Part shown: one piece after another, positions 27,112 to 43,852 of the stretch
How positions within the stretch are numbered: the first letter of the stretch is position 1
Layout of the letters: the number at the start of each line of letters is the position of its first letter
Assembly: GCA_001770415.1 (NCBI GenBank)
Contig: MEQX01000003.1
Location: 8,442-72,441, forward strand
Direction: 5' to 3'
DNA length: 64,000 nt
From: Betaproteobacteria bacterium RIFCSPLOWO2_02_FULL_63_19
Lineage (GTDB): Bacteria; Pseudomonadota; Gammaproteobacteria; Burkholderiales; SG8-39
Position numbers and translations under genes: made by a program
Notes under the pieces: model-generated
Database searches by the model: none
Seen by the model: the letters and a program-made list of their open reading frames with translations, nothing else
Told to the model about the DNA's origin: nothing

Positions 27112-30100
27112 TGGGTCACTTGTCCTGGTTGTACGGCGCTGGCGGGTTGCCGCGACGCGGGGGCTGCCGCCGCAGGATCGGCTGCGCGCGGCGCTGGCTG
27201 CACGGGGGTGACCGGACGTGCCATGTGCTCGTAAAGAGCGCGCCGCTCTTCTGACTTGTGCTGCAGCAGGTGCATCAGATCCCGGAATCGCATCGGGTCC
27301 TGCTGCTCGACCATGCGGAAGCGCGTTTCGTTGCGGCAGAAATCGATCACTTTTCCTATTGAGGGCATCGAATCGACATGCAGCGGGCTCTTCCCGGGAC
27401 CAGCGTGGCGCGGATCGTAGCGGTACAAAGGCCAGTAACCGGTGTCGACGGCCAGTTGCTGCTGGGCGGCGCCGTACGCCATGTCGTAGCCATGCGCGAT
27501 GCAATGCGAATACGCGATGATCAGTGACGTTCCCGGGTAGGCTTCGGCCTCGGTGAAAGTCTTGACGGTCTGCGCATCGCTGGCGCCGAAAGCAACCTGT
27601 CCGACGTAGACGCTGCCATAGGACATCGCAAGCAGACCAAGGTCCTTCTTCGCGATGGACTTTCCCGCGGCAGCGAACTTTGCGGCCGCGCCGGTGGGCG
27701 TGGCCTTGGATTGCTGGCCGCCGGTATTGGAATAGACCTCGGTGTCCATGACCAGCACATTCACGTCGCGCCCTGAGGCCAGCACGTGGTCCAGCCCGCC
27801 GTACCCGATGTCGTACGCCCAGCCATCGCCGCCGACGATCCAGACGCTCTTGCGCACCAGATAGTCCGCAAGCAGTTCGAGCCGCCGGGCCTCGGGCCGG
27901 AAGCTGCTCTTGAGTTTTTCGCGCAACATCGCAACGCGGGCACGTTGGGCGCTGAGCGCCGCCTCGCCCTGCTGTGGGGCGCCCAGCAATTCGCGAACCA
28001 GGGCGTCGCCGACGTCGGCTCCGAGCACGCTCAGCAGTTCCTGCGCCTGTCGCGCGTGCTGATCGACCGCGAGGCGGAAGCCCAGGCCGAATTCCGCATT
28101 GTCCTCGAACAGGGAATTGCTCCAGACAGGACCCAGGCCCTCACGGTTCGCAGCATAAGGCGTCGTTGGCAGATTGCCTCCGTAGATCGACGAGCAGCCG
28201 GTGGCGTTGGCGATCATCGCACGGTCGCCGAACAATTGCGTCAGCAGTTTGACGTACGGCGTTTCGCCGCAGCCGTTGCAGGCGCCCGAGTACTCGAACA
28301 GCGGCTCGAAGAACTGGGTTCCCATGACGTTGAGCGGCAGCTTGCTGCGGTCGGACTCGGGCAACTCCAGGAAGTATTCGTAGTTGTCGCGCTCGGGCGC
28401 GCGCAGCGGCCCCTGCGGGACCATTTCGATGGCTTTTTGACGCGGGTTCAGCTTGTCCCTGGCGGGACATACTTCGACGCACAGACGGCAGCCGGTGCAA
28501 TCCTCCGGCGCCACCTGCAGGGTATAAACGCTGCCCTGAAAATACTTGCCCTTGAATTCGTCCCACTGGAAGGTGGGCGGTGCTCCTTTAGTCAATTCCG
28601 GCGGATAGACTTTCGCTCGTATGGCTGCATGCGGGCACGCGAGCACGCACTTGTTGCACTGGGTGCAGACCACCGGGTGCCACTGCGGAATCTCGAGCGC
28701 CAGATTGCGCTTCTCCCATTTCGCGGTCGCGGTTGGCCAGGTTCCGTCGACAGGGAAAGCGCTCACCGGCAGCGCATCCCCCTTGCCCGAGAGCATGACC
28801 GCGGTCACCCGCTTGACGAAGTCCGGCGCTTTGGCCGAGACGATAGGGGGTAGGTAGATCTCCGAGCGTGCTTCGGCTGGCACCTCGACCTGATGCAGAT
28901 GGGCGAGAGCGTCGTCGACCACTGCGTAATTCCTGTTCACCACATCCTCGCCTTTGGCGGAGTAGGTCTTCTTTATCTGACGTTTGATGTAGCCGATCGC
29001 CTCCTCGCGCGGGAAAATCGCTGCAAGCGCGAAAAAGCAAGTCTGCATCACCGTATTGACGCGTCCTCCCATCCCTGCACGCCGCGCCACGTCATAGGCG
29101 TCAATGGTGTAGACCTTCAGTTTCAAGTCGATGATCCGCTGCTGTATTTCTCGCGGCAGTTCGTCCCAAAGCTTTTCGGGCGCAAAGAGTGAATTGATGA
29201 GCAGCGTACCGCCGGGGGTCGCCATTTCGAGTACGTCGTAGCGCTCGAAGAAACTCCATTGATGCACCGCGACGAAACCTGCGCGTCGGATGAGATAGCT
29301 CGATCGAATGGGTCTTGGTCCGAAGCGAAGGTGAGAAATGGTGATGGCGCCGGATTTCTTCGAGTCGTAGACGAAGTAGCCCTGCGCGAACTGGTCGGTC
29401 TCCTCGCCTATGATCTTGATCGAGTTCTTGTTCGCGCCCACCGTACCGTCCGCCCCGAGCCCATAGAACACGGCGCGAACGACGTCCGCGGGTTCAATGT
29501 CGAAGGAGGCGTCAACCGGCAGCGAAAGGTGGGTGACGTCGTCGACGATGCCGACCGTGAAGGACCGGCGCGCTTGCTTCTGCGCCAATTCCTCGAATAC
29601 GGCGCGCGCCATGGCAGGGGTGAATTCCTTGGACGAAAGTCCGTACCGTCCGCCCGCGACCTGCACCTGCACCTTTTTCTTCGCCCCGCGCTGTTCGGCG
29701 TCGCGCAGCGCCGCCACCACATCGAGGTAAAGCGGTTCGCCGATCGCTCCCGGCTCCTTGGTGCGGTCGAGCACCGCGATCGCGCGCGTGCTCGGAGGAA
29801 GTGCTTCGACAAATTCCGCTACAGGGAACGGACGGAACAAGCGCACCTTGAGCAGGCCCACCTTTTCACCGCGCGAGGCCATCCAGTCGACGAGTTCATG
29901 CGCCGTTTCGGCGCCCGAACCCATCATGACGATCACGCGCTCGGCTTCGGGATGGCCGACGTAGTCGAATAGGCGATAGCGCCGCCCGGTGACCGCGGCG
30001 AAGCGCTCCATCGCCGCCTTCACCATTCCCGGACAAGCATCGTAGTAACCATTACAGGCCTCGCGGGCCTGAAAAAATACGTCAGGATTTTGCGCCGTGC

Positions 30101-30758
30101 CCCGCACCACCGGCCGGTCGGGCGACAGCCCCCGGCGACGATGGTCGGTAATGGCTTCTTCGTCCACCAGGGCGCTCAGTTCGTCGTTCGAGAGTATCGC
30201 TATCTTGGACACTTCGTGCGAAGTGCGAAACCCGTCGAAGAAGTGCAGGAAGGGTATGCGCGTTCCCAGCGTGGCCGAGTGGGCGATGGCGGCGAAGTCC
30301 TGCGCTTCCTGGACCGAGCCGGAGGCCAGCATTGCAAAACCGGTCGAGCGGCAGGCCATCACGTCCGAGTGGTCGCCGAATATCGAAAGGGCGTGCGTGG
30401 CCACGGTGCGCGCCGAGACGTGCATCACGAAAGGGGTGAGTTCGCCGGCGATCTTGAACATATTGGGGATCATCAGCAGCAGGCCCTGCGACGCGGTGAA
30501 CGTGGTCGCCAGCGCCCCGGCCTGGAGCGCCCCGTGGACCGCGCCGGCGGCGCCTCCTTCGGACTGCATTTCGGTGACCTGGGGGACCGTGCCCCAGAGG
30601 TTCTTCGCGCCCTGTGCGGCCCACTCGTCGGAATACTCGCCCATGTTGGAGGACGGTGTGATCGGATAAATGGCGATCACCTCGCTCAGGCGGTAGGCAA
30701 CCGAGGCCACGGCCTGGCTCGCATCTAGGGTTTGCATCGTCATTGGCGTAGTGCTCAT
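27108..30758 (-). CDS. nifJ: pyruvate:ferredoxin (flavodoxin) oxidoreductase
   Basis: 1216-aa protein. Contains YPITPSS, the MQSEGGAAGAVHGAL domain I motif, two ferredoxin CxxCxxCxxxCP motifs (CTQCNKCVLACP, CTGCRLCVEVCP) and the TPP motif GGDGWAYDIG. Confidence 0.95.
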   Translation of the reverse strand: MSTTPMTMQTLDASQAVASVAYRLSEVIAIYPITPSSNMGEYSDEWAAQGAKNLWGTVPQVTEMQSEGGAAGAVHGALQAGALATTFTASQGLLLMIPNMFKIAGELTPFVMHVSARTVATHALSIFGDHSDVMACRSTGFAMLASGSVQEAQDFAAIAHSATLGTRIPFLHFFDGFRTSHEVSKIAILSNDELSALVDEEAITDHRRRGLSPDRPVVRGTAQNPDVFFQAREACNGYYDACPGMVKAAMERFAAVTGRRYRLFDYVGHPEAERVIVMMGSGAETAHELVDWMASRGEKVGLLKVRLFRPFPVAEFVEALPPSTRAIAVLDRTKEPGAIGEPLYLDVVAALRDAEQRGAKKKVQVQVAGGRYGLSSKEFTPAMARAVFEELAQKQARRSFTVGIVDDVTHLSLPVDASFDIEPADVVRAVFYGLGADGTVGANKNSIKIIGEETDQFAQGYFVYDSKKSGAITISHLRFGPRPIRSSYLIRRAGFVAVHQWSFFERYDVLEMATPGGTLLINSLFAPEKLWDELPREIQQRIIDLKLKVYTIDAYDVARRAGMGGRVNTVMQTCFFALAAIFPREEAIGYIKRQIKKTYSAKGEDVVNRNYAVVDDALAHLHQVEVPAEARSEIYLPPIVSAKAPDFVKRVTAVMLSGKGDALPVSAFPVDGTWPTATAKWEKRNLALEIPQWHPVVCTQCNKCVLACPHAAIRAKVYPPELTKGAPPTFQWDEFKGKYFQGSVYTLQVAPEDCTGCRLCVEVCPARDKLNPRQKAIEMVPQGPLRAPERDNYEYFLELPESDRSKLPLNVMGTQFFEPLFEYSGACNGCGETPYVKLLTQLFGDRAMIANATGCSSIYGGNLPTTPYAANREGLGPVWSNSLFEDNAEFGLGFRLAVDQHARQAQELLSVLGADVGDALVRELLGAPQQGEAALSAQRARVAMLREKLKSSFRPEARRLELLADYLVRKSVWIVGGDGWAYDIGYGGLDHVLASGRDVNVLVMDTEVYSNTGGQQSKATPTGAAAKFAAAGKSIAKKDLGLLAMSYGSVYVGQVAFGASDAQTVKTFTEAEAYPGTSLIIAYSHCIAHGYDMAYGAAQQQLAVDTGYWPLYRYDPRHAGPGKSPLHVDSMPSIGKVIDFCRNETRFRMVEQQDPMRFRDLMHLLQHKSEERRALYEHMARPVTPVQPAPRAADPAAAAPASRQPASAVQPGQVTQ

Positions 30759-31370: not shown

Positions 31371-31386
31371 TGGCATGGAGGTTGCT
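31371..31386 (+). promoter_or_regulatory. sigma-54 (-24/-12) promoter
   Basis: TGGCATGGAGGTTGCT against the consensus TGGCACG-N4-TTGCW: GG and GC have exact spacing and there is one mismatch in the -24 hexamer. It lies 45 nt upstream of the ATG at 31431. An NtrC-type activator is encoded 9 kb downstream. Confidence 0.6.
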
Positions 31387-31430: not shown

Positions 31431-31892
31431 ATGAGCGAAAAAGCCAAAGTTCTGATCGTCGATGACCAAGAGGTGGTTCGTTTGAGCTATCTCAGGTCGC
31501 TGGGCAGCGAACACTGTAGGGTGGACGTGGCGGCAAGTGGCGAGGAAGCGCTGCTGACGATGCAGCAACGCAAATTCGATCTGGTCCTCCTCGACCTGCG
31601 GATGCCTGGTATGGACGGTATGGACGTGCTTAGGACGATCAAGCAGACGTGGCCCGACACCGAAGTGGTCATGATTACCGGATACCCCACGGTCGAGACG
31701 GCGAAAGAGGCGGTTCGGTTGGGTGCACATGGCTACCTGGCCAAACCACTCGGTCCGGACGATATCGTCAATGCGGCAAACGACGCCGTCATCCAAAAGA
31801 AGTGGACGCTGCGCAAGGACTGCGGGAATGCAGGCCTGGGCACGGGTTTGCACACCGATGAGTGGAAGAAGACCGAGGGCGCTGCTTGCTGA
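31431..31892 (+). CDS. stand-alone response-regulator receiver (CheY-like) protein
   Basis: Contains VLIVDDQ, the phospho-acceptor context LVLLDLRMPGMDG, then VVMITGY and AKP. No output domain is present. Confidence 0.85.
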   Translation: MSEKAKVLIVDDQEVVRLSYLRSLGSEHCRVDVAASGEEALLTMQQRKFDLVLLDLRMPGMDGMDVLRTIKQTWPDTEVVMITGYPTVETAKEAVRLGAHGYLAKPLGPDDIVNAANDAVIQKKWTLRKDCGNAGLGTGLHTDEWKKTEGAAC

Positions 31893-32485: not shown

Positions 32486-33649
32486 ATGGTTCTGCTGATC
32501 GTAGTCGTCACGATTATCGTTTTCGTAATTGTCGACTTTTCGCTGCGCGTATATCTACAGAGGAGGCGGGAATTACAGCTCAGGAAAGAACGCGAGAAGG
32601 CTCTTGACATCGGACTGAAACTGGACTTTTCGGAGGAAGCAAAGACTCTCAAGCGAGTGGAGGTCAAGGATCCAAAGGCAAGAATCTTGGCCGTCGACGA
32701 CGAGCCGATAATCCTGGACAGCTTCAGGAAGATTCTCGTCGTCGCTGGCTATAGCATCGACACGGTGGAAAAAGGGAGCGAAGCACTGGGGCTAATTTTG
32801 AAAAATGACTACGACTTCGTTTTTACAGACCTGAAGATGCCGGAAATGGACGGCCTGGAGGTAACCAAGGCAGTCAAGCACCTGCGCCCCGATATAGACG
32901 TGATAGTCATCACCGGATACGCGTCCATCGAAACCGCCGTCGAGACGATGAAGTACGGGGCGATGGACTACGTACAGAAACCATTTACCGAGGACGAACT
33001 CATCGAGTTCTTCAACAAGTCGCTCATCCGGCGCAAGGACCGGATCGAACGTCAAATGAAGCCGACGGTCCGCTTGATCACCCCATCGGTGAAGGAGTCG
33101 GCGTCAATGCACGAGTTCAATGTGCCGGCAGGGATATTCGTCTCTCAGAATCATACCTGGGTCAATATAGAGATGAACGGTACCGCGCGTGTCGGAATAG
33201 ACGATTTCGTACGCAAGATCATCGGAACGATCGATCAGGTCGCGCTCCCGAAACTGAACAAGGAAATAGAAAAGGGCGATCCGCTTTTCTCCATCACAAA
33301 AGATTCTCGAACCATGGACATCGCCTCGCCGATAAGCGGAAAAATCAGTTTGGTAAACGCCGAGCATGTCGAGCATCCGGAATGGATCGGATCAAAGCCG
33401 TTCGAGCTCAGTTGGATGGTCTGTCTCGATCCGTCGAATCTCTCCGAGGAATTGCGTTCGCTGAAGATTGGCGCAGATTCAGTCAACTGGTACAGGAAGG
33501 AAATTGACAGGTACAGCGAAATTGCAACCGCAATCGAGGGAGAAGACGCCGGTACCGGCCGACCGGAGAAGGGAGGTGACAAGGGAGGGAAACCCAGGGC
33601 AGACGAGAAATTCATGGCCGAGTTCGCTAACGCATTTCTGCTGAAATAG
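32486..33649 (+). CDS. membrane-anchored receiver domain fused to a GcvH-like (glycine-cleavage H fold) domain
   Basis: An N-terminal TM helix (LLIVVVTIIVFVIVDF) is followed by a REC domain at about 32678-33030 (ILAVDDEP, FTDLKMPEMDG, VIVITGY, QKP). The region at about 33120-33440 aligns without gaps, by eye, to E. coli GcvH (H.W, GT..VGI, LP, GD, DI..P.SG.I..VN). Confidence 0.8.
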   Translation: MVLLIVVVTIIVFVIVDFSLRVYLQRRRELQLRKEREKALDIGLKLDFSEEAKTLKRVEVKDPKARILAVDDEPIILDSFRKILVVAGYSIDTVEKGSEALGLILKNDYDFVFTDLKMPEMDGLEVTKAVKHLRPDIDVIVITGYASIETAVETMKYGAMDYVQKPFTEDELIEFFNKSLIRRKDRIERQMKPTVRLITPSVKESASMHEFNVPAGIFVSQNHTWVNIEMNGTARVGIDDFVRKIIGTIDQVALPKLNKEIEKGDPLFSITKDSRTMDIASPISGKISLVNAEHVEHPEWIGSKPFELSWMVCLDPSNLSEELRSLKIGADSVNWYRKEIDRYSEIATAIEGEDAGTGRPEKGGDKGGKPRADEKFMAEFANAFLLK

Positions 33650-33701: not shown

Positions 33702-34220
33702 ATGATCAAATATCTTTTCGCAACGGTATCGGCAGTAATGTTTGCTGCAGCCGGCCCGCCTGCAGGGGCAGCCCCTCCAAAGGCCGCGGCGCCCGAGACG
33801 GCGGCGTCCGGCGCTGCGTCTTTGAGCGTGGTGGCGCCGGAAATACCGTCGGAAATCATTATTCCGTCTTCGGTGGGCGCGATCAGGTTCCCGCACCAGA
33901 TGCACATAAAAGATCTTTCGGTCAAGTGCGTCGACTGCCACCATCAGATAAACGCCAGGCCATTGAGCACCCCGCATCCGGACTATTTCAGCTCGACCTG
34001 GATCAACTGCAGGACTTGCCACGAGCAATCGGAGAAGCTCTCGAAGAAGGCGTTCGTCTGCTCGGAGTGCCATACGGCCCGGCCGAAAAATATCGCGGAT
34101 GAAACACTCAGCGCAAAAGTGGTGGTTCACAAACAGTGCTGGAAGTGCCACGCGGTGGGCACCGGCAAGGAGGCAAGCAAAGCCTGTGAAAAGTGCCATT
34201 CGGGCAAGAAGCGCTTCTGA
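33702..34220 (+). CDS. periplasmic c3-type multihaem cytochrome (5 CXXCH motifs)
   Basis: It has a signal peptide and the c3-like opening FPHQMHIKDLSVKCVDCHH. The five motifs are CVDCH, CRTCH, CSECH, CWKCH and CEKCH. Confidence 0.85.
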   Translation: MIKYLFATVSAVMFAAAGPPAGAAPPKAAAPETAASGAASLSVVAPEIPSEIIIPSSVGAIRFPHQMHIKDLSVKCVDCHHQINARPLSTPHPDYFSSTWINCRTCHEQSEKLSKKAFVCSECHTARPKNIADETLSAKVVVHKQCWKCHAVGTGKEASKACEKCHSGKKRF

Positions 34221-34264
34221 TCAGGGCTGTTCGATTGATTTTCGGTCTCTGGTAAGGACAGATC

Positions 34265-35149
34265 ATGGATAGAAGACGGTTTTTCGCGACTGCCGGTACC
34301 GCCGCCGGGACGCTGCTGCACATGAAGAAGTCGGAGGCCGCGAACGCCAAGGAGGGCAAGGAGTTTGTCGGCGTGCTCGTCGATACGACAAGGTGCATTG
34401 GGTGCCGAGCCTGCGAAGTTGCCTGTTCGGTGGCATGGAACAATTTTGTTCCGGACGTAAAGAATGACAACGCGCTCGATCATCGCAGAGATACCAGCGA
34501 TAAGCAGTACACGGTCGTCAATCGTTTCAAGACCGAAAAGGGAGATGTATTCGTGAAGAGGCAGTGCATGCATTGCTGGCAGGCGGCTTGTGTCGCGATG
34601 TGCCTGGTGAATGCAATGTACAAGACCAAGGAGGGACCTGTTACCTGGAATGGAGAGAAATGCCTGGGGTGCAGATTTTGCATGGTGGCCTGTCCGTTTG
34701 ACATTCCAAAAGCTGAGTATCTTTCATGGAATCCAAGAATCATGAAGTGCCACATGTGCTATGAGAGACTGCAGGAGGGAAAGAAGCCCGCATGCGTGGA
34801 AGCGTGCCCGGCCGATGCGTTGATGTTCGGTCAAAAGCGAGAACTGATGGAAATCGCACGGCATCGCGTATACAGCCACCCAGACAAATATGTGCACCAG
34901 ATATACGGCGAGCAGGAAGCCGGTGGAACAGGTTGGCTCTACCTCTCCGCCGTTCCATTCGATCAGATAGGGTTCAGAACCGATCTTGGCACGACGCCTT
35001 ATCCAGAATACACGAAACAGTTTCTGGTTTCCGTGCCGCTCGTTCTATTCGGTGTTCCGGCACTGCTGCTAGGGCTGAGCGAGCTGTCGGATAGAAAGAA
35101 TGAAGTTCGCGAAAGCGAAGGATGGACAGAGACGGGGGCGGACGAATGA
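34265..35149 (+). CDS. Tat-exported 4x[4Fe-4S] ferredoxin-like subunit (HmcB/NrfC/DsrO/HybA family) with a C-terminal TM helix
   Basis: It has the twin-arginine signal MDRRRFFATAG. Four cluster motifs are present: CIGCRACEVAC, CMHCWQAACVAMC, CLGCRFCMVACP and CHMC-X11-CVEACP. A hydrophobic tail (FLVSVPLVLFGVPALLLGL) follows. Confidence 0.9.
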   Translation: MDRRRFFATAGTAAGTLLHMKKSEAANAKEGKEFVGVLVDTTRCIGCRACEVACSVAWNNFVPDVKNDNALDHRRDTSDKQYTVVNRFKTEKGDVFVKRQCMHCWQAACVAMCLVNAMYKTKEGPVTWNGEKCLGCRFCMVACPFDIPKAEYLSWNPRIMKCHMCYERLQEGKKPACVEACPADALMFGQKRELMEIARHRVYSHPDKYVHQIYGEQEAGGTGWLYLSAVPFDQIGFRTDLGTTPYPEYTKQFLVSVPLVLFGVPALLLGLSELSDRKNEVRESEGWTETGADE

Positions 35150-36345
35150 ACACCACCGCAATTGGCACAAGCGAATTCAACCGGGTCGCGAGTTTCATTT
35201 GGCAGGAATTGAAGCCGCGGGGCAAGTGGCTTACCCCGTTCAATGTCATCTCCATTCCGATCATATTGCTCGGCATTGGAATCCTGTATTTCCGTTTTGT
35301 ATACGGGATCGGATTCGTCACCAATCTCAACCAATACTACCCGTTGGGTATCTGGATCGGATTTGACGTGGTGACCGGAGTGGCTCTTGCCGGCGGGGCC
35401 TACGTCATCACCTTCGTCGTCTATGTGATGAGAATGGAAAAATATCATTCCATAGTCAGAGTGACGGTCTTGAACGGATTGTTAGCGTACATCTTCTATG
35501 CTGGGGCACTGACACTGGATCTGGGACGGCCCTGGCACATCGTCAATCCGATCATCGGGAATTCGTTCGGCTACAACTCAGTGCTGTTCCTCGTTTCGTG
35601 GCATTTTCTGCTCTATATGCTCACGATGGCGCTGGAGTTTTCGCCGGTCGTTGCGGAATGGGCCCAGCTTGAGAAAGCGCGGAAATTTCTTTCCGGCCTG
35701 ACGCTCGGTGCGGTGATATTCGGTATTACGCTTTCTATTCTGCATCAATCCGGTCTTGGCGCCCTGTTCCTGATGGCCAAGCCGAAGATCCATCCGCTTT
35801 GGTATTCGGAATTCATACCGGTCATGTTCGTCGTGTCAAGCATTTACGCGGGACTCTCGATGATCATATTCGAGGGAACGATCAGCCACAAAGTCTTTAG
35901 AGACCTGCTTGCTGGCCAAGATCATCATCGCTATGAGGAGATCATCCTTGGTCTGGGCAAAGGTGCGGCCATCACGATGTTCGTCTATTACTTCTTCCAG
36001 GCGCTGCTGTTCATACATGAAGAACGCTGGGAACTCATAACGGATGCTTGGGGTTACTGGTATCTCCTCGAGGTCATCGGTCTGGTGCTCATACCCTGTT
36101 TCATGTACGCGTACGCGGTGCGCAACAGGAACCTCGGAATACTCAAGGTGGCGGCCGTCCTGGCCCTGCTGGGCATAATCCTCAACAGGCTGAACGTGAC
36201 CGTCATCGCGTACCGCTGGTATGACGTGGACAAGTATTACCCGTCATGGCAGGAGATCGTCGTGACGCTCACGGTGGTCTTCACCGAGATATGGATCTTC
36301 CGCTGGATTGTTACCCGCATGCCGGTCTTCGGCAAGAGACGATAG
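35146..36345 (+). CDS. NrfD-family polytopic quinone-interacting membrane subunit (HmcC/DsrP-like)
   Basis: 399-aa protein with about 10 TM segments. Its start overlaps the FeS-protein stop (ATGA). The position after a Tat-FeS subunit is the canonical NrfCD-type arrangement. Confidence 0.85.
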   Translation: MNTTAIGTSEFNRVASFIWQELKPRGKWLTPFNVISIPIILLGIGILYFRFVYGIGFVTNLNQYYPLGIWIGFDVVTGVALAGGAYVITFVVYVMRMEKYHSIVRVTVLNGLLAYIFYAGALTLDLGRPWHIVNPIIGNSFGYNSVLFLVSWHFLLYMLTMALEFSPVVAEWAQLEKARKFLSGLTLGAVIFGITLSILHQSGLGALFLMAKPKIHPLWYSEFIPVMFVVSSIYAGLSMIIFEGTISHKVFRDLLAGQDHHRYEEIILGLGKGAAITMFVYYFFQALLFIHEERWELITDAWGYWYLLEVIGLVLIPCFMYAYAVRNRNLGILKVAAVLALLGIILNRLNVTVIAYRWYDVDKYYPSWQEIVVTLTVVFTEIWIFRWIVTRMPVFGKRR

Positions 36346-36354
36346 GAGCCGCGA

Positions 36355-36533
36355 TGGAGTACTACACGTATGTAAACATATTCGAGACCAAGGGCCTGGA
36401 ATACCTCCTGTTGATGTGCTTCTTCGCCCTGTTCATCTATCTGGTGAGATACCTGTCGGGCCCCGGAAAGAAGGATTCGGCTCCCCGTGACGGGAGCGCG
36501 GCGGGCGGCCGGATGAAAGGCGCCGGGCATTGA
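36355..36533 (+). CDS. small single-TM protein (59 aa), possible accessory subunit
   Basis: The ATG lies 9 nt after the nrfD-like stop and is preceded by AGGAG. One TM helix (LEYLLLMCFFALFIYLV) is present. The C-terminal tail lies in a GC-rich patch, so the 3' end is uncertain. Confidence 0.4.
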
Positions 36534-36660: not shown

Positions 36661-38532
36661 ATGAAATTCGCCGGAACCAAGATCGGCCTGAAGCTGGTCC
36701 TTGCGGTCGGCGTCATCACGATCGTCATCATCGGCGCCTTTTCCTACCTGAGCATCAACGCGCAGAGCGATGCGCTGCTCTCGCAGGCCGGAATACACGC
36801 GAACAAGCTGAGCGAGGCGATAAAGAACAGCACGCACACGAGCATGCTCGAGAACAGGAAAGACGAGATTCACGCGATCATCAACACGGTCTCGCACGAA
36901 CCGAGCATTCTCGAGATACGGATATTCAACAAGGAAGGGGTCGTCACGTTCTCGTCGCGGGAGAATTCGACCGGCAAGATGGTCGACAAGCGCGCCGAGA
37001 GCTGCTACGCATGCCACACGGAGAACCAGCCATTGCGAAGGCTTTCGATCGACAAGAGAATGCGCATCTACAGGATCAGTTCGAATTCGCCGCGCATACT
37101 GGCCGTCATCAATCCCATCTACAACGAGCCCTCGTGCTACCAGGCGGCGTGCCATGCACACCGCCGGGACCAGACGGTGCTGGGCGTGCTGGACGTAAAG
37201 ATGGACCTAAAGGACGTCGATCGGCAGATCGAAGACAGCAAACTCAGGTTGATCATCTTTGCCGCCATTGCGACTCTTGCTTTAAGCCTATTCATTGCAT
37301 ATTTCGTGAGACGGTGGGTCGGAAAGCCCGTTAGCGAACTGGTAAAAGCGACCAACCAGGTAAGCCTGGGGAACTTGAATTACACGATAGAAGACCCAGG
37401 GAAGGACGAACTGGGAATCCTGGCCACGTCCTTCAACAAGATGACGAAGAGTCTTGCGGATGCCAAGCTGCAGCTCTTCCAGGCCGACAAGATGGCTTCG
37501 TTAGGGCGGCTTGCCGCCGGCGTAGCTCACGAAATAAATAACCCGCTTACGGGTGTATTGACCTACAGCAGTTTTCTGCTTAAGCGAGTCAAGGACAATC
37601 CAGAACTGCAGGAAAACCTTGAGGTAATAGTTCGAGAAACCATACGGAGCAGGGAGATCGTAAAGAGTCTGCTCGACTTCTCACGGCAATCGATTCCCAA
37701 AAAGCATAGTGCAGACATAAGCAAGATCATCAAGAGCGCAATCGAAGTGGTTTCCAATCAGCTCGTACTCAAGGAAATCCAGCTGGATGCGCAGCTGGAT
37801 GAGTCTTTGCCGGAAATCACGGTTGACGCAAACCAGATCCAGCAGGTGCTAATCAACCTGCTGGTCAACGCAGCGGACGCGATCGGAGAGGGCGGCGGTA
37901 AGATTTCCATCGTTCCATCTCTGATTTCTCTTCCGCCGCACGGTCTGGCGAGGATCAAAGCTGCCGTTTGCCCAAAGAGGCACGACCTGATGGATAACGA
38001 AGTTCGAAGTTACGGGCTGCCGACCGTGAGGCTGAAGGCCATTTCGAAGGGGACAGAGGGGATCATCAACCTGGATCCCATTTATGGAAAGAACCGGCAC
38101 CAGTACGGTTTGGAACTGGATCAAGGAGGGGACTTGCAGTTGTCCTGCCCCCAGTGCAATACGTCATTGATAGACGAATCCATACGGTGCCCGAAATGTC
38201 GTTCGACGGTATACAGTTTCGAAACGCCCCCGGACGGGGTGCTGGAAGGCTGTACGAACCCGGACTGCGGTTGGCAACGCTGGCAGGCAATGGATGATAC
38301 CGGCCAGAAAGATTACATCGAACTGAGGATCGCGGATACGGGTCAGGGGATCCCAAAGGAGGATCTATCCAGGATATTCGAACCGTTCTTCACCACGAAG
38401 GGGCAGTACGGGAATGGCCTGGGACTCGCGGTCATATGGGGAATAATCGACAACCATAACGGAACGATCAGCGTGGAAAGTGAACTCGGCAAGGGGACGG
38501 TGTTCGTCATTCATTTGCCGATGCAGAATTGA
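36661..38532 (+). CDS. sensor histidine kinase: periplasmic loop with haem-c motifs, HAMP, HisKA, and HATPase with a large Cys-rich insertion
   Basis: TM1 and TM2 flank a loop of about 170 aa carrying CYACH (37003-37017) and CYQAACH (37135-37155). It also has a HAMP domain, the H-box GVAHEINNPL, the N-box LLVNAADA, G1 DTGQGI and G2 GNGLGL. Confidence 0.9.
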   Translation: MKFAGTKIGLKLVLAVGVITIVIIGAFSYLSINAQSDALLSQAGIHANKLSEAIKNSTHTSMLENRKDEIHAIINTVSHEPSILEIRIFNKEGVVTFSSRENSTGKMVDKRAESCYACHTENQPLRRLSIDKRMRIYRISSNSPRILAVINPIYNEPSCYQAACHAHRRDQTVLGVLDVKMDLKDVDRQIEDSKLRLIIFAAIATLALSLFIAYFVRRWVGKPVSELVKATNQVSLGNLNYTIEDPGKDELGILATSFNKMTKSLADAKLQLFQADKMASLGRLAAGVAHEINNPLTGVLTYSSFLLKRVKDNPELQENLEVIVRETIRSREIVKSLLDFSRQSIPKKHSADISKIIKSAIEVVSNQLVLKEIQLDAQLDESLPEITVDANQIQQVLINLLVNAADAIGEGGGKISIVPSLISLPPHGLARIKAAVCPKRHDLMDNEVRSYGLPTVRLKAISKGTEGIINLDPIYGKNRHQYGLELDQGGDLQLSCPQCNTSLIDESIRCPKCRSTVYSFETPPDGVLEGCTNPDCGWQRWQAMDDTGQKDYIELRIADTGQGIPKEDLSRIFEPFFTTKGQYGNGLGLAVIWGIIDNHNGTISVESELGKGTVFVIHLPMQN

Positions 38533-38621: not shown

Positions 38622-39947
38622 ATGGGCATTGGCCGGAGCAGACTGGAGACAACGGGTACGGCGTTCCACACGGAGTTTGTTGTCGCTGTCGGGATTGCGG
38701 TGTTGGCGGCAGTGCTCACTGTTGCGAGCCCGCGCGCTGGCGCCGCCGAGGGCGCGCTTTCGCAACTGGATCAGCAATGTCTGGCCTGCCATTCCGCAGA
38801 GGGACTCGAGAAGAAGCTTGATAACGGAGAGAAGCTCTCGATGCACGTGGATGGGGCGGCATTTGAGAAATCTGTGCACAACAAGATTGGATGCCCGGTC
38901 TGCCATGCCAATACCTCGTTCGAGAATCATCCTCCGGTCAAGACGAAAATCAGCAGTGTCCGCGAGTATTCGCTTTCGCAGAACAAGGTTTGCGAATCGT
39001 GTCACGCACCAATACTCAAACTGTACGAAAGCAGCATTCATGCCGCGCTTCTGCGCTCGGGGAATGCGTACGCCCCCATATGCACGGACTGCCACAGTCC
39101 CCATGCGGTGATGGCGAAAGCCGCCTATGACAAAGCAAGCGGGACTCCCTGCAGCAAGTGTCACGATCCCATTTTCAAGGCGTACGCCAGCAGTGTGCAT
39201 GGTAACGCCGGCCTGGACTGCTCGAACTGCCACCGTGCTCATGAAGTTACTGCCGCGACCGCGGGAGACCAGTTGAAGGACGCCTGTCTGGCGTGTCACC
39301 AAGGCGCCTTGGACAGCCACAAGACTTGGTTGCCGAATGCCGGCCGGCATTTCGACGCAGTGTCTTGCCCGGCCTGTCATTCGCCTAAAGCCAAGCGCAG
39401 GGTTGACCTCAGGCTATATGACAATGCAGCGCAACAGCGCGTCGCGGAAAAGAAGGGTGTGCCACAGTTCGAAAGCCGCATTCGCCTGGTCGATTCCAAG
39501 GGTTCTGGTTTGGACGCGATGGCGCTGCACAGCCTGCTTACCGGGTTCAACCGTGACGGAACGGACAACAGGACAACGCTGCGGGGCCGACTGGAGGTCA
39601 GCGACGGTGTCGACGCGCATCGACTCGTGCGAAGCAAAGGGGCGATACAGGATTGCGCCAAGTGCCACCGGCAGGGGGCCGATCCGTTCCAGAGCGTCAC
39701 GGTATCCATTGTCGGTCCGGATGGCAGGCCGGTACGCTATGGCGCCAAGCCGGAGGTCCTGAATTCGATGATTTCGGTGGATTCGGTGGGCGGCTTCTAC
39801 GCAATCGGCGGAACGAGGATCAAGCTGCTCGACTGGCTCCTGGCTCTCGCGGTGCTAGGCGGCATAGGCGTGCCGCTCGGCCATCTGACCATAAACTGGC
39901 TTGTAAAGCGATACGCGAAAAGGATCGGCGGCAAGGAGGACTCCTAG
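38622..39947 (+). CDS. membrane-anchored nonahaem cytochrome c
   Basis: The ATG is preceded by AGAGGAG. It has a signal/anchor segment and nine CXXCH motifs (CLACH, CPVCH, CESCH, CTDCH, CSKCH, CSNCH, CLACH, CPACH, CAKCH). A C-terminal TM helix (LLDWLLALAVLGGIGVPLG) is present. Confidence 0.85.
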   Translation: MGIGRSRLETTGTAFHTEFVVAVGIAVLAAVLTVASPRAGAAEGALSQLDQQCLACHSAEGLEKKLDNGEKLSMHVDGAAFEKSVHNKIGCPVCHANTSFENHPPVKTKISSVREYSLSQNKVCESCHAPILKLYESSIHAALLRSGNAYAPICTDCHSPHAVMAKAAYDKASGTPCSKCHDPIFKAYASSVHGNAGLDCSNCHRAHEVTAATAGDQLKDACLACHQGALDSHKTWLPNAGRHFDAVSCPACHSPKAKRRVDLRLYDNAAQQRVAEKKGVPQFESRIRLVDSKGSGLDAMALHSLLTGFNRDGTDNRTTLRGRLEVSDGVDAHRLVRSKGAIQDCAKCHRQGADPFQSVTVSIVGPDGRPVRYGAKPEVLNSMISVDSVGGFYAIGGTRIKLLDWLLALAVLGGIGVPLGHLTINWLVKRYAKRIGGKEDS

Positions 39948-40027
39948 GACGATACGCGATGCGGGGTTGATCAGAGCCGTGCGTCGTCCCGTCAAAGCCG
40001 AGCTCCCATAGGTAGAAGGAATACGCG

Positions 40028-40666
40028 ATGCCAAGAATATATGTTCACCCGCTTCCCGTCAGAATCTGGCACTGGATCAACGCGCTCGGATTCGTGGCGA
40101 TGATCGTCACCGGATTCCAAATACGTTACATCGGATTAATCGATCTGATGTCATTCCGGACGGCGGTGGTCTTGCACGACTGGATCGGTTTCGTACTAAT
40201 CGGCAATTTCTTTATCTGGTTACTGTTCTATCTGTTCTCAGACAAGATCAAGGTGTATCACCCCGAATTGAGCCCGATGAAGCATTTTCGCCAGAGTTTC
40301 CGGCAGGCTCTGTATTACGGCTACGGCATCTTCAAAGGTGAACCCAATCCACACCACGTTAGCGTCTATCAAAAGTTCAATCCAATGCAAAGCATGAGTT
40401 ATCAGGTCATTATGCTGCTCCTGGTGCCACTGCAGTTCTGGACCGGAGTGCTGCTGTGGGACGTCAAGCGCTTTTCGGGAATGATCGATGCGCTCGGAGG
40501 TGTACGGGTGGTAGATACGGCACACGTGCTTATCTTTATCTTCTTTTCGGGATTTATCTTCATACACGTCTACCTGGCTACGCTGGGCCACACTCGCATG
40601 GCTCACATCAAGTCAATGTTCACCGGATATGAGGACATAGACGAAGAACACCCCGCTGGCCGTTGA
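40028..40666 (+). CDS. b-type cytochrome membrane subunit (Ni/Fe-hydrogenase-cytb / PhsC / FdnI-like family)
   Basis: 212-aa protein with 4 TM segments. The family-typical opening is VRIWHWINALGFVAMIVTGFQI, with conserved His residues in TM helices (HW, HD, HVLIF, HVYLA). Confidence 0.85.
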   Translation: MPRIYVHPLPVRIWHWINALGFVAMIVTGFQIRYIGLIDLMSFRTAVVLHDWIGFVLIGNFFIWLLFYLFSDKIKVYHPELSPMKHFRQSFRQALYYGYGIFKGEPNPHHVSVYQKFNPMQSMSYQVIMLLLVPLQFWTGVLLWDVKRFSGMIDALGGVRVVDTAHVLIFIFFSGFIFIHVYLATLGHTRMAHIKSMFTGYEDIDEEHPAGR

Positions 40667-40790: not shown

Positions 40791-42215
40791 TCAGGCGGGC
40801 CGAGACTCTCCGGCATTCTGTTCGGTATCCCGGACGCGGATGCCATACTTCTTCATGAGCGCCTGGAAGTTCGCGCGCTGCATGCCGGTCTCCTCGGCAC
40901 TTCGGGTCACGTTCCATGCGTTTCTCTTCAGGGCCTCGATCACGAAAAGGCGCTCGATGCCTTCAACCGATTTCTCCCGCGCGGTCTTCTTTATCTTCTT
41001 CAGTTCGTCACTGGTTCTGGGTACGTCCAGATCGGGTTGCACCACCAATTCGACGATGTTGACCAGGTGGGCCTGACGGACCATCCGGTCGCCGGCGAGG
41101 ATCACCGCACGGTGGATGGTGTTCTCCAGCTCGCGCACGTTCCCGGGCCAGCCGTAGTTCATCAGCACGCTCATTGCGCCTTCTGAGAATTCTTCCACTT
41201 TCTTTCCAAGTTCTTCGCTGAATACCCTTAGAAAGTGGAAGGCAAGGGCGGGAATGTCGTCTTTCCGTTCGCGCAGCGGCGGCACCGTAATGGGAAAAAT
41301 ATTAATGCGGTAATAGAGGTCCTCACGGAATGTTCCATCGGCTACCATCGCCTTGAGGTCCTTATTGGTGGCGGTGATGAGCCTGAAATTGGCGGCCTGC
41401 GTCCGCGTGTCGCCTACGGCCTTGAATTCGCGTTCCTGGATGACCCGCAGTAGCTTGGCCTGGGTCGAAAGGGTGATGTTGCCTATTTCGTCCAGGAACA
41501 GGGTCCCATTGTCCGCGAGTTCAAACAACCCGCGCTTGTTGGCCACTGCGCCGGTGAACGCGCCCTTGACGTGTCCGAACATCTCACTCTCCAGCAAGTT
41601 CTCGCTCAGCGAGTTGCAGTCAACCGCGACGAAGGGCTTGTCCTTTCTGAGACTGTTGTAGTGGATCGCACGCGCGATCAGTTCCTTTCCGGTTCCGCTA
41701 TCGCCGGCGAGCATGACCGTGCTGCTGGTCGGTGCGCACTTTGCGATCAGCCGGTATACGGTCTGCATCTGCGGGCTGGCCCCGATGATGTTCTCGAAGC
41801 GGTACTTCGAACTGACTTCACTCTTGAGGTTGGTGTTCTCCTGCAGCAGTTGACGCCTCTCTAATGCGCGCTTCACCACCAGTTTCAGTTCATCCGGGTC
41901 GAAGGGCTTGGGCAGGTAGTCGAAAGCGCCCAGCTTCATCGCGCGTACCGCCGTATCAATCTGCGATAGACCGGTGACCATTATTACGTCGATGTCCGGA
42001 TGTGCTTCCTTGACCCTGCGCAGGACTTCCAGCCCGTCGATTCCAGGCATCATGATGTCCAGGATCACGAGGTCGTAGGGGGTTTCATCGATCTCTTGGA
42101 TTGCCTGCAGTCCGTCCCGTACGGCTTCGACGGTGTAATCGCCGCTGCCGAGTATGCGCAGACAGCTTCTGATGATGATTTCTTCGTCGTCGACGACCAG
42201 TATTCTGGCGCTCAT
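40791..42215 (-). CDS. sigma-54-dependent response regulator (NtrC family: REC-AAA+-Fis HTH)
   Basis: REC domain (ILVVDDE, LVILDIMMPGIDG). AAA+ domain with Walker A GDSGTGKE, the GAFTGA loop and RVIQEREF. C-terminal HTH (WNVTRSAEETGMQRANFQALMKKYGI). Confidence 0.95.
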   Translation of the reverse strand: MSARILVVDDEEIIIRSCLRILGSGDYTVEAVRDGLQAIQEIDETPYDLVILDIMMPGIDGLEVLRRVKEAHPDIDVIMVTGLSQIDTAVRAMKLGAFDYLPKPFDPDELKLVVKRALERRQLLQENTNLKSEVSSKYRFENIIGASPQMQTVYRLIAKCAPTSSTVMLAGDSGTGKELIARAIHYNSLRKDKPFVAVDCNSLSENLLESEMFGHVKGAFTGAVANKRGLFELADNGTLFLDEIGNITLSTQAKLLRVIQEREFKAVGDTRTQAANFRLITATNKDLKAMVADGTFREDLYYRINIFPITVPPLRERKDDIPALAFHFLRVFSEELGKKVEEFSEGAMSVLMNYGWPGNVRELENTIHRAVILAGDRMVRQAHLVNIVELVVQPDLDVPRTSDELKKIKKTAREKSVEGIERLFVIEALKRNAWNVTRSAEETGMQRANFQALMKKYGIRVRDTEQNAGESRPA

Positions 42216-43852
42216 TGACTGCTCCCGCTGCTCTCCATCTTTTCCGGCGTCGGCTCGATCGGCAGAAACACGCGGAAGGTCGATCCCTCACCCTCGGTGC
42301 TCTCTACCTCAATCGCGCCGCCGTGTGCCTTCACGATGCCGTGGCTCACGGACAATCCAAGTCCCGTACCGCTTCCTACCTTCTTGGAAGTGAAGAACGG
42401 GTCGAAAACGCGATGAATAATATTTTCCGGGATGCCGCAACCGGTGTCGATGACCGATATCTCCACCATGGGGACAGGCGGCGCGCCCGGTTCGGGTGGC
42501 CTCGGGTCGGGACAGCGGCGGGTGCGCACGGTAATGCCGCCTTTTTCTTCGATTGCGTGCTGCGCGTTGACGAGCAAGTTCATGATTACCTGCTTGAACA
42601 GGTCCTCATCGACCCACACCAACGGTAAGTCAGTGTCGAGTTCGAGGGTGATCTCGATATTGCGTAGGTGTGCGGGTCGCTCGATGATCCGAGTGGTGTC
42701 TTCGATGATCGGATTGAGGTCGGCAAATTTCTTTTCCGGCGGCCTTTCGCGTGCAAAATCCAGCAGCCTGCGGATGATCGCCGCGCAGCGCTTGGTTTCC
42801 CGGATGATCAGGTCCAGGTCCTCCGCGTCCGGGCTATCGTCCGGCAGCTTCTGGCGCAGCAGGTGGGCGAAGGTGAGAATACCGGTCAATGGATTGTTGA
42901 GTTCGTGGGCGATTCCCGCTGCCAGCAGACCTACGGACGCCAGTTTCTCCCCGCGAACAGCTTCGGCCTGCGCAGCGCGCAGTTCGCGGGTCCGTTTTTC
43001 CACTTTCTCTTCCAGTGTGTGAGCCCATTCGTGCAACTCCAGCCTGGATTGCCTGAGCGCTCTGGTCATGGCGTTGAACGATCCGGACAACTGTCCGAAT
43101 TCGTCGTCGCTGCGCACGGGTATTGTCTGTTCGAGGTCTCCGGAGGCAAGCCGTCTGGCACCTTCTTCCAAGTCGTTCAGGGGAACCTGAATCAGGCGAT
43201 GCACGAAGAAGGCGACCATGACAGAGGCCACAACGATGAAGCACAGCGAAAACAGGGCGATGGTCAGCGCATTGGCGCGCAATCCACGGTCGATGTCCTC
43301 CAGCGAATAGACGATATCCAGTACGCCAAGCACGGACGTGGTCTTTGCATGCTGGTGGCAGGCCGCTGTGTAGCACGAGGGCTCGTTGCGTATTACCTCC
43401 ATGCTGCCGAGCATGCGCCTGCCTTCGGGCGTAGTAAATGTCCAAGTTCGTTCATGTCTGGGCACCTGCTCCAGTGGCTGTTTGCTCTGGTGACAGTGGG
43501 AGCAGGCTTCGGCTTTGCGATCCAGCGTCTGCCCGATTTCCGATGCGTCGGTGGAATGCGTGATCTTGCCCTCTTTACTCAGGATTCGGACCTTGTCGAT
43601 GGTGCCCTTGTTGCTGACGTCGCGAATAATCCTGTCGACGTAATCGGGTTGATTCTGAAGCATCGCGTAGCGCGTGCTCTTGGTGATGACCTCGGACAAC
43701 TGGGTGACGCGGTCGGAAACGTTCGCCAGGAGTTCTTGGCGCTGATGCCAGATGACCAGTGCAACGAAGGCCGACATGACCGTCGTTAGCGCAAGTGTCA
43801 AGTACAGGGCGACCTTGAACTTGAGAGTTTCCGGACGCATGCGTGCCTTCAC
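42212..43852 (-). CDS. sensor histidine kinase, paralogue of 36661-38532, with haem-c motifs in the periplasmic loop
   Basis: It has the same architecture. CSHCH (43490-43504) and CYTAACH (43355-43375) lie at equivalent positions. HAMP, H-box GIAHELNNPL, N-box LLVNAQHA, G1 DTGCGI and G2 GTGLGL are present. Its stop overlaps the activator start (ATGA). Confidence 0.9.
   Translation of the reverse strand: MKARMRPETLKFKVALYLTLALTTVMSAFVALVIWHQRQELLANVSDRVTQLSEVITKSTRYAMLQNQPDYVDRIIRDVSNKGTIDKVRILSKEGKITHSTDASEIGQTLDRKAEACSHCHQSKQPLEQVPRHERTWTFTTPEGRRMLGSMEVIRNEPSCYTAACHQHAKTTSVLGVLDIVYSLEDIDRGLRANALTIALFSLCFIVVASVMVAFFVHRLIQVPLNDLEEGARRLASGDLEQTIPVRSDDEFGQLSGSFNAMTRALRQSRLELHEWAHTLEEKVEKRTRELRAAQAEAVRGEKLASVGLLAAGIAHELNNPLTGILTFAHLLRQKLPDDSPDAEDLDLIIRETKRCAAIIRRLLDFARERPPEKKFADLNPIIEDTTRIIERPAHLRNIEITLELDTDLPLVWVDEDLFKQVIMNLLVNAQHAIEEKGGITVRTRRCPDPRPPEPGAPPVPMVEISVIDTGCGIPENIIHRVFDPFFTSKKVGSGTGLGLSVSHGIVKAHGGAIEVESTEGEGSTFRVFLPIEPTPEKMESSGSSQ

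Follow-up and report, generated by a model that had tools for sequence, protein, structure and literature searches.

What is the function of a gene block that reads as a complete electron wire, from periplasmic haems through iron-sulfur (FeS) clusters to the quinone pool, and holds no catalytic subunit? The question is raised by positions 33702 to 36533 of a 64,000-nucleotide stretch of contig MEQX01000003.1 (positions 8,442 to 72,441, forward strand; assembly GCA_001770415.1) from Betaproteobacteria bacterium RIFCSPLOWO2_02_FULL_63_19. This whole stretch is referred to as the window, and all coordinates given here are window coordinates. An initial annotation of the same DNA had proposed a redox-loop or electron-entry module rather than a terminal reductase. 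We consider it likely that the four genes of the block encode an Hmc/Nhc-type A-B-C-D complex, which faces the periplasm, interacts with quinone and transfers electrons without a catalytic subunit of its own, and which is most likely an electrogenic cytochrome:quinone oxidoreductase. The four genes are listed below.

33702..34220, plus strand: subunit A, a periplasmic pentahaem cytochrome c of 172 amino acids (aa) with a signal-like N-terminus, an Ala/Pro-rich linker and five CXXCH motifs
34265..35149, plus strand: subunit B, a Tat-exported, C-tail-anchored 4x[4Fe-4S] ferredoxin-like protein of 294 aa, HmcB/HybA-like
35146..36345, plus strand: subunit C, a cofactor-less, quinone-interacting NrfD-like membrane subunit of 399 aa with 10 transmembrane helices (TMH), HmcC/HybB-like
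36354..36533, plus strand: subunit D, a small protein of 59 aa with a single transmembrane helix and the conserved N-terminal motif YVNIFETKGLEY, weakly HmcD-like

All four ORFs were confirmed on the plus strand. The cytochrome gene has the ribosome-binding site GAGAGAGG, and its product starts with a hydrophobic, Sec-type signal-like N-terminus. The tight coupling noted by the initial annotation was seen again, as the ATG of the NrfD-like gene overlaps the stop codon of the FeS gene in an ATGA at 35146-35149. The small open reading frame (ORF) had been placed at 36355, one base off its frame. The frame opens at 36354, 8 nt past the NrfD stop codon, with a GGAG 7 nt upstream. In the public gene calls, the four products were likewise called on 8 metagenome contigs that carry an identical NrfD protein.

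Relatives of the block were collected by scanning one genome per GTDB species with exact peptide patterns, which yielded 80 loci with flanks of up to 8 kb; more divergent copies in cultured organisms would therefore have been missed. The small ORF directly follows the NrfD gene in all 72 loci whose NrfD protein is at least 63% identical to that of the window. The order cytochrome, FeS protein, NrfD-like protein, small ORF was kept in 68 of the 68 related loci that have upstream sequence; in the remaining 4 of the 72, no upstream cytochrome is visible because the contigs end before that DNA. Since the order, the five haem motifs, the 16 Cys and the small ORF are all conserved across loci, the four-gene arrangement is far beyond chance. 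The 80 loci span about ten or more phyla. They were assigned to Burkholderiales, other Betaproteobacteria, Ignavibacteria, Thermoanaerobaculia, other Acidobacteriota, Lysobacterales, Calditrichota, Gemmatimonadota, Krumholzibacteriia, Binatia, Planctomycetia, Spirochaetes and others, and the carriers were sampled from groundwater, sediments, lakes and reactors. Across the five-haem system the membrane subunits share 57-90% identity. Public records name the four-gene proteins only 'hypothetical' or 'NrfD/PsrC family'.

The cytochrome contains exactly five CXXCH motifs, the number counted previously, at residues 76, 103, 120, 146 and 162. Their spacing (27/17/26/16) was identical in 68 of 68 homologues, six of which, mostly from metagenome-assembled genomes (MAGs) of Lysobacterales, carry an N-terminal extension bearing one extra haem. 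Beyond the His of the CXXCH motifs, H65, H68, H81, H92 and H143 were invariant in an alignment of 46 homologues. With five further invariant His, all five haems would be expected to be bis-His. Pfam matched Cytochrome_C7 and Cytochrom_CIII. In NCBIfam, residues 56-125 (haems 1-3) matched the c7 triheme domain and residues 102-167 aligned to the extreme C-termini of HmcA and the nine-haem NhcA. The HmcA model gave 29.9 bits (cut-off 400), with only its last 66 positions matched, and the 9HemeCytC (NhcA) model gave 30.4 bits (cut-off 640). No NrfB, NapC/NirT or NrfH match was obtained for the cytochrome in the Pfam and NCBIfam scans. Weak matches in the PDB were GSU1996, PpcA, the nonahaem 1duw, and the ActA chains 6btm_A and 8k9e_A. 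By sequence, the protein thus appears to be a c7-like triheme part joined to an HmcA/NhcA-like C-terminus. Of the earlier description as a c3-type five-haem cytochrome, the haem count stands, and the notion of a c3 with one haem added has to be dropped. The window cytochrome is 99% identical to a 'hypothetical protein' of Betaproteobacteria bacterium RIFCSPLOWO2_12_FULL_63_13.

The FeS protein bears the twin-arginine (Tat) motif MDRRRFF, four cluster motifs with 16 Cys between them, and a hydrophobic helix at its C-terminus, which confirmed the membrane anchor that had been attributed to this subunit. Among its homologues the 16 Cys were invariant, the Tat motif was present in 79 of 80, and the C-terminal helix was kept. 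Pfam assigned Fer4_11. The NCBIfam scores were 333 bits for HmcB (cut-off 420), 216 for HybA (cut-off 263) and 96 for NrfC (cut-off 378). The protein is 35% identical to Escherichia coli HybA, and its best match in the PDB is FdnH (1kqf_B).

For the NrfD-like protein, which Pfam assigned to NrfD, the corresponding NCBIfam scores were 381 bits for HmcC (cut-off 550), 239 for HybB (cut-off 450), 72 for QrcD and 17 for NrfD (cut-off 348); other members of its family scored 395-397 bits on HmcC. Thus, for both proteins, HmcB/HmcC were the top curated families and HybA/HybB came second, and the Nrf, Qrc, Dsr, Psr and Ttr families were far lower. More than 7000 database relatives of the NrfD-like protein were found, the best 120 of which were 71-90% identical. 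A tblastn search against plasmids returned only HybB at about 29% identity, and a PDB sequence search returned nothing at E <= 0.01. The AlphaFold2 (AF2) model of this protein (pLDDT 67, pTM 0.68) superposed best on the 10-helix ActC of alternative complex III (TM-score 0.63-0.70), followed by ActF and PsrC. The protein has about 10 hydrophobic helices. It belongs to the 10-TMH branch (HybB/HmcC/QrcD/DsrP/ActC), because the Pfam NrfD match, the number of helices, a conserved proton path, the superposition on ActC and the overlap with the FeS gene all agree.

The proton path was traced by alignment with E. coli HybB, to which the NrfD-like protein is 28% identical. R89, Y99, E148 and H184 of HybB correspond to R105, Y115, E164 and H200. 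In 81 sequences, Y115, E164 and H200 were invariant and position 105 was R or K; K214, H216, E309 and R348 were invariant as well. According to the account of Lubek 2019 given in PMC8076601, mutating R89, Y99, E148 or H184 of HybB impairs H2 oxidation.

The initial annotation had suggested that the small ORF may be an additional subunit, and had asked whether it is conserved in homologous clusters. Its presence after the NrfD gene in 72 loci answered the question, and the weak likeness to HmcD agrees with the suggestion; only the start coordinate needed correction. The consensus of the protein is MExYxYVNIFETKGLEYLLL..F..L....RYL, and the family falls into 57 representative clusters, every one of 36-114 aa. 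Among 18,950 models, HmcD was the one matched by most family members. On this NCBIfam model of 38 positions, 16 of 39 small or fused members matched at E <= 1; the best match had an E of 8.2e-5 and 22.5 bits (cut-off 34), and the window copy gave no match. Because of these weak model matches, together with its position and size, the small ORF may be a divergent HmcD/NhcD-type subunit. By the positive-inside rule, its acidic N-terminal motif would lie in the periplasm and its basic C-terminus in the cytoplasm.

Is a catalytic gene linked to the block in other genomes? All other ORFs of at least 120 aa in the 80 loci were clustered, and no additional gene family was found in more than about 10% of the loci. 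Several apparent 'conserved extra genes' that the clustering produced were discounted, since in these high-GC loci they look like shadow ORFs, either antisense or in an alternative frame, and the largest such 'families' include shadows of the conserved genes. Across the 80 loci there was no recurrent gene for a molybdopterin or sirohaem protein, a NiFe or FeFe hydrogenase or an octahaem reductase, and no hydrogenase gene was present in the window block. Only signalling genes, plus a second cytochrome module in Betaproteobacteria, are conserved beside the four. The proteins also lay outside the characterised complexes: their best models were HmcB and HmcC, yet the scores stayed below the equivalog cut-offs, and the cytochrome is neither HmcA nor NhcA. 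The view of the initial annotation, that the block lacks a molybdopterin or sirohaem partner and looks unlike a terminal reductase, is therefore supported.

These data also bear on another explanation, that the FeS-NrfD pair with its cytochrome relay anchors an enzyme encoded elsewhere, with a formate dehydrogenase, an octahaem reductase and a periplasmic hydrogenase as the candidates. In its favour, the families that rank second are HybA and HybB, related pairs of tail-anchored FeS and HybB-like proteins serve NiFe and FeFe hydrogenases (PMC10924467), and our view covers 64 kb of the host genome only. However, no such gene is linked in 80 loci of many phyla despite the tight operon structure, and, as in Nhc and Qrc, a dedicated cytochrome favours soluble redox partners over a docked enzyme (PMC8076601, PMC6303296). 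We therefore regard an anchor for a distant enzyme as very improbable.

Returning to the cytochrome:quinone oxidoreductase, how could it work? In FeS/NrfD dimeric modules, quinone is bound next to the proximal cluster, not far from the periplasmic face (PMC6303296, PMC8076601). In liposomes, Qrc reduced menaquinone with periplasmic electrons and cytoplasmic protons, at an H+/e- of 1, and HybB and HmcC are predicted to share the Qrc proton channel (PMC6303296). The combination of a tail-anchored FeS protein, a HybB-like protein and a c-type cytochrome is a recognised stand-alone module type (PMC10924467). By homology with these systems, the cytochrome with its five bis-His haems would exchange electrons with a redox partner in the periplasm. 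Next in the path would come the tail-anchored HmcB/HybA-like protein with its four [4Fe-4S] clusters, and at the end a quinone site in the cofactor-less 10-helix HmcC/HybB-like subunit, close to its periplasmic face; the 59-aa HmcD-like helix would be a putative fourth, structural subunit. Most probably, quinone would be reduced by periplasmic electrons and cytoplasmic protons. Such a reaction would be electrogenic and make up one half of a redox loop, and the proton-motive force could also drive it in reverse. A working mode like that of Qrc and hydrogenase-2 (Hyd-2) appears most probable because the proton-path residues of HybB/QrcD/HmcC are conserved here. The electrogenic oxidoreductase is favoured because the haems, the 16 Cys and the R/Y/E/H path are all present and conserved.

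Several points weigh against this interpretation. All 80 genomic relatives come from MAGs, and the four-gene family is known from genes alone. The HmcB, HmcC and HmcD scores all lie under the curated cut-offs, and the family was placed by curated hidden Markov model (HMM) scores. The AF2 model of the cytochrome, built from a 46-sequence alignment, was unusable (pLDDT 44.6). In the membrane subunit, the quinone-site Glu of HybB (E133) and NhcC (E141) is Leu149 in 78 of 81 members, and HybB S190 is replaced by Ala in the family. Because of these two replacements, the site, or the type of quinone that it binds, may depart from the models, though the proton-path residues are kept. Finally, the sequence would suit either direction of electron flow. 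Low-potential bis-His haems would fit quinone reduction, and menaquinol oxidation, as in CymA and Cbc, would also be possible.

The last point leads to the view that the same architecture works as a quinol dehydrogenase, which passes electrons from (mena)quinol to periplasmic or outer multihaem cytochromes and on to extracellular or periplasmic acceptors, as in CymA, NetBCD and the Cbc complexes of Geobacter. The genes downstream of the block bear on this view.

36661..38532, plus strand: haem-sensor kinase of 623 aa with c-haem motifs in a periplasmic sensor; Pfam HAMP, HisKA and HATPase_c
38622-39947, plus strand: accessory cytochrome with a C-terminal transmembrane helix; nine CXXCH counted
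40028-40666, plus strand: accessory cytochrome b561/PhsC-like protein, PhsC/Ni_hydr_CYTB-type by Pfam and NCBIfam
40791-42215, minus strand: sigma54-dependent response regulator, from ORFs and motifs; conserved in Betaproteobacteria-type loci
42212-43852, minus strand: second haem-motif histidine kinase, from ORFs and motifs; conserved in Betaproteobacteria-type loci

The nine-haem cytochrome and the cytochrome b lie 2 kb downstream of the block, in the window as in other Betaproteobacteria-type loci. They occur together in about 19 of the 80 loci, mostly betaproteobacterial or Burkholderiales MAGs, and in a few loci that were binned otherwise (L007, L036, L038, L060); they are absent from most other phyla. 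As a side observation, this pair (38622-40666) looks like a second quinone-linked module and resembles a split CbcL-type arrangement. Cytochromes with at least four haems, including 11-, 17- and 19-haem proteins, are found near the block in 25 of the 80 loci. The c7-like N-terminal three haems recall the periplasmic carriers of Geobacter, haem-sensor kinases and a sigma54 regulator are adjacent, and Cbc4, a comparable trio of cytochrome, FeS and membrane proteins, has been proposed for extracellular electron transfer. All of this would suit a quinol dehydrogenase. Nevertheless, 55 of the 80 loci have no extra multihaem cytochromes, which are therefore not part of the conserved unit, and no porin-cytochrome genes were seen in the 64-kb window. 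The cytochrome is of a type unlike CbcS and NrfB, and of the characterised relatives the nearest, Hyd-2, Qrc and probably Hmc, are mainly quinone reductases (PMC6303296). We thus hold electron flow out of the quinol pool to be possible but somewhat unlikely, though a rival to be taken seriously, above all in the 25 loci where large multihaem cytochromes adjoin the block, and continue to prefer the electrogenic quinone-reducing complex.

The unit conserved across phyla is larger than the four genes. It includes the haem-sensor kinase downstream and the following gene upstream.

32486..33649, plus strand: transmembrane-receiver-GcvH-like protein of 387 aa with an N-terminal transmembrane helix; Pfam Response_reg plus GCV_H

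In nearly all loci, this gene directly precedes that of the cytochrome. The receiver of its product keeps the acidic pocket (DD), the phospho-acceptor D115, T143 and K165. At least 4827 homologues scored at E <= 1e-5, for not all of which the architecture was confirmed. Among the matches listed, 120 of 120 (77-99% identity) carry a receiver (REC) domain plus GCV_H, and their public names are only 'response regulator', 'CheY-like' or 'CheY-like/glycine cleavage H'. Proteins of this architecture are plentiful in metagenomes. In the alignment of the GcvH-like domains with E. coli GcvH, the column of the lipoyl-Lys (K65) was filled by S, G, D, E or others, with S in the window protein. Since the lipoyl-Lys column is not conserved, these domains are not lipoyl carriers. 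We also rejected a role as a cytoplasmic redox carrier with a lipoyl arm, for the same reason and because NrfD-type subunits have no transmembrane cofactors.

The haem-sensor kinase adjoins the block in 59 loci and accompanies it in nearly all. Its CXXCH (C115-H119) and CX4CH-x-H (C159-H167) motifs were invariant across 60 homologues. In the window the motifs read CYACH and CYQAACHAH in this kinase, and CSHCH and CYTAACHQH in the second one (42212-43852). The motifs suggest that both HAMP kinases may bind haem covalently as sensors, with conservation compared for the kinase at 36661-38532. Judged from their co-conservation with the block, the c-haem sensor kinase and the transmembrane-receiver-GcvH-like protein probably control its expression or activity. 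Outside Betaproteobacteria-type loci, two more GCV_H proteins are encoded after the kinase, one of them soluble (REC+GCV_H) and the other a second transmembrane-REC-GCV_H paralogue.

GcvH-like domains also occur in eight more distant loci (NrfD 54-64% identical), which have no cytochrome. In several of these, a transmembrane+GCV_H or a PBP-like+GCV_H protein is encoded upstream of the FeS gene, and most of them encode, downstream of NrfD and at the position of the small subunit, a protein of some 235 aa that ends in a GCV_H domain, checked by Pfam in three. The N-terminus of this protein was recognised by the small-subunit family HMM in 6 of the 8 loci (E 1e-13 to 1.6e-4). As an aside, such fusions (L085 3319-4011, L084 9318-10028 and similar ones) weakly match NF045810, 'GcvH-related protein' (GcvH_rel_desulf), with a best E of 4e-10, below the cut-off. 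The name suggests that this model may be based on Desulfovibrio-type organisms, in which case a GcvH-like partner might exist there too. Neither receiver-GcvH fusions nor GcvH-like genes next to NrfD modules were found described in the literature.

Since REC+GCV_H, transmembrane+GCV_H and PBP-like+GCV_H architectures surround the FeS-NrfD pair, one may ask whether the complex is primarily a redox-sensing or phospho-regulated device, which would include the membrane-anchored GcvH-like proteins on its cytoplasmic side and either reports the redox state of the periplasm or the quinones, or is gated by receiver phosphorylation. The receiver-GcvH-like and haem-sensor kinase genes flank the block across phyla, and in 6 of 8 cytochrome-less relatives the motif and helix of the small subunit are fused to GCV_H directly after the NrfD gene. 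Moreover, the loss of the lipoyl Lys means that the GcvH-like domain is no glycine-cleavage carrier, and the phospho-acceptor residues of the receiver are retained. However, regulators are often encoded next to their target operons without being subunits. A wire of 16 Cys, five haems and an invariant proton path answers the needs of energy transduction and goes beyond those of a sensor. A device of this kind is thus unlikely in our judgement. Slightly less doubtful, and put forward only tentatively, is the narrower idea that the non-lipoylated GcvH-like domains are cytoplasmic-face subunits of the Hmc-like complex and not merely neighbouring regulators. If this is true, a phosphorelay with the c-haem sensor kinase would gate the quinone-linked module post-translationally, or would use the module as its redox input, a coupling of respiratory complex and response regulator of a sort not previously described.

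Some features of the surroundings were specific to the window. A further signalling gene marks the upstream edge of a low-GC block.

31431..31892, plus strand: single-domain receiver of 153 aa; Pfam Response_reg

Its homologues, at 55-67% identity, lie upstream or nearby in Betaproteobacteria-type loci. About 45 nt before it, at 31371-31386 on the plus strand, TGGCATGGAGGTTGCT is a sigma54 -24/-12 pattern with one mismatch and the best of the window, in which the count of such patterns was at chance. Scans for sigma70 promoters and terminators were at or below chance, and Rfam gave no match in the window. The GC content is 52-59% over about 31.0-44.0 kb, against 62-63% on either side, and this dip matches the extent of the entire cytochrome/regulator block. 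The low-GC block is consistent with a horizontally acquired island, an origin that fits because of the GC dip, the cross-phylum distribution and the membrane-subunit identity of 71-78% on long contigs across phyla. Immediately upstream of the block, on the opposite strand, lie genes for a 1216-aa pyruvate:ferredoxin oxidoreductase (27108-30758, minus strand) and a dihydroorotate-dehydrogenase-like protein (26089-27111, minus strand), which are syntenic in near-identical metagenome contigs. These two genes point to an anaerobic or facultative lifestyle of the host.

Modules of cytochrome, FeS protein and NrfD-like protein without a catalytic subunit are the link of many anaerobes from periplasmic carriers to the quinone pool, with energy conserved. 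To our knowledge, work on them has so far been limited almost entirely to sulfate reducers (Hmc, Nhc, Qrc) and Geobacter. The architecture itself would be expected by specialists; its breadth, its degree of conservation and its linkage to signalling genes are undocumented. If the present complex reduces quinone electrogenically, or oxidises quinol reversibly, it would represent a widespread, unaccounted entry or exit of electrons in uncultured facultative anaerobes. The linkage with receiver-GcvH-like genes and the fusions of the small subunit to GcvH-like domains also offer a testable hypothesis of direct signalling control over a respiratory complex.

How does the block compare with known systems? 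NetBCD of Aeromonas is a comparable trio of cytochrome c, 4x[4Fe-4S] protein and NrfD-like protein, without a catalytic subunit, which is proposed to lead from the quinone pool to periplasmic cytochromes. It is Nrf-type, whereas the window proteins reached only 96 bits on NrfC and 17 on NrfD. Cbc4 (CbcSTU) of Geobacter is likewise such a trio without a catalytic subunit and has been proposed to link the quinone pool with periplasmic cytochromes. However, CbcS is a membrane-anchored tetrahaem cytochrome of the NapC/NirT type (bioRxiv 10.1101/2025.04.14.648717), whereas the window cytochrome is c7/cIII-type with five haems; Cbc4 is therefore only a functional analogue. In alternative complex III (ActABCDEF), the ActC chains are nearest in structure and ActA is also a pentahaem protein with c7-like elements. 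Nevertheless, the sequence similarity is marginal, and no ActB molybdopterin-like domain, second NrfD-like subunit (ActF), ActD or ActE is present in the block. E. coli hydrogenase-2 has the same HybA/HybB-type FeS/NrfD dimeric module, and the tested HybB residues are conserved. In the block, however, there are no HybO and HybC genes, the scores are below the HybA and HybB cut-offs, and a cytochrome c takes the place of the hydrogenase.

The Ohc-type module is also a stand-alone set of three or four genes, for a Tat-exported tail-anchored FeS protein, a HybB/NrfD-like quinol oxidase and one or more periplasmic c-type cytochromes (Gallego-Parrilla et al. 2024, PMC10924467). No conserved flanking genes were reported for it (PMC10924467), whereas the window family has strictly conserved signalling flanks and a conserved small subunit. 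In one gammaproteobacterial MAG, an Ohc-type module of octahaem cytochrome, tail-anchored FeS protein and NrfD-like protein (L065 12287-15352) adjoins the pentahaem system. Its NrfD-like protein is 34% and its FeS protein 42% identical to those of the window, and the former scores 314 bits on HmcC and 270 on HybB. By these scores and identities, the window family is distinct from the Ohc-type module and closer to HmcC, and since both modules stand side by side in this genome, they are not interchangeable orthologues.

The order A-B-C-D is the one found in hmc and nhc (PMC10924467, PMC8076601). The block shares this order with HmcABCDEF of Desulfovibrio vulgaris; HmcB and HmcC are the best models for its FeS and NrfD-like proteins, and its small subunit, which fits HmcD in position and size, is weakly like it in sequence. 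The FeS protein is tail-anchored and Tat-exported in both, and a response-regulator gene lies near the operon, rrf1 in the case of hmc (PMC10924467). The differences are that HmcA has 16 haems compared with five here, that all scores are below the equivalog cut-offs, and that neither HmcE (a NarI-like cytochrome b) nor HmcF (a cytoplasmic CCG-type FeS protein) is present in the conserved block of the 80 loci; electrons therefore have no path across the membrane to the cytoplasm. The cytochrome b encoded nearby (40028-40666) is PhsC/Ni_hydr_CYTB-type and largely confined to Betaproteobacteria-type loci.

NhcABCD of Desulfovibrio desulfuricans has the same order of cytochrome c, 4x[4Fe-4S] protein, 10-TMH NrfD-like protein and small hydrophobic protein, is free of cytochrome b, cytoplasmic and catalytic subunits, and is proposed to be a cytochrome:quinone oxidoreductase (PMC8076601). 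This Nhc-type order without E, F or catalytic subunits was found in 68 of the 68 loci with upstream sequence, and the C-terminus of the window cytochrome aligns to that of NhcA. The two systems differ in that NhcA has nine haems, compared with five in 172 aa here, and that NhcC E141 is Leu here. The hosts here are not sulfate reducers, no TpIc3 context is visible in the window, and the block is linked to receiver-GcvH-like and haem-kinase genes. Taken together, of the Nhc/Hmc/Cbc class to which the initial annotation had assigned the block, Cbc4 stays as a functional analogue only, and the Hmc/Nhc part is borne out by the A-B-C-D order, the C-terminus of the cytochrome and the conserved small ORF with its weak likeness to HmcD.

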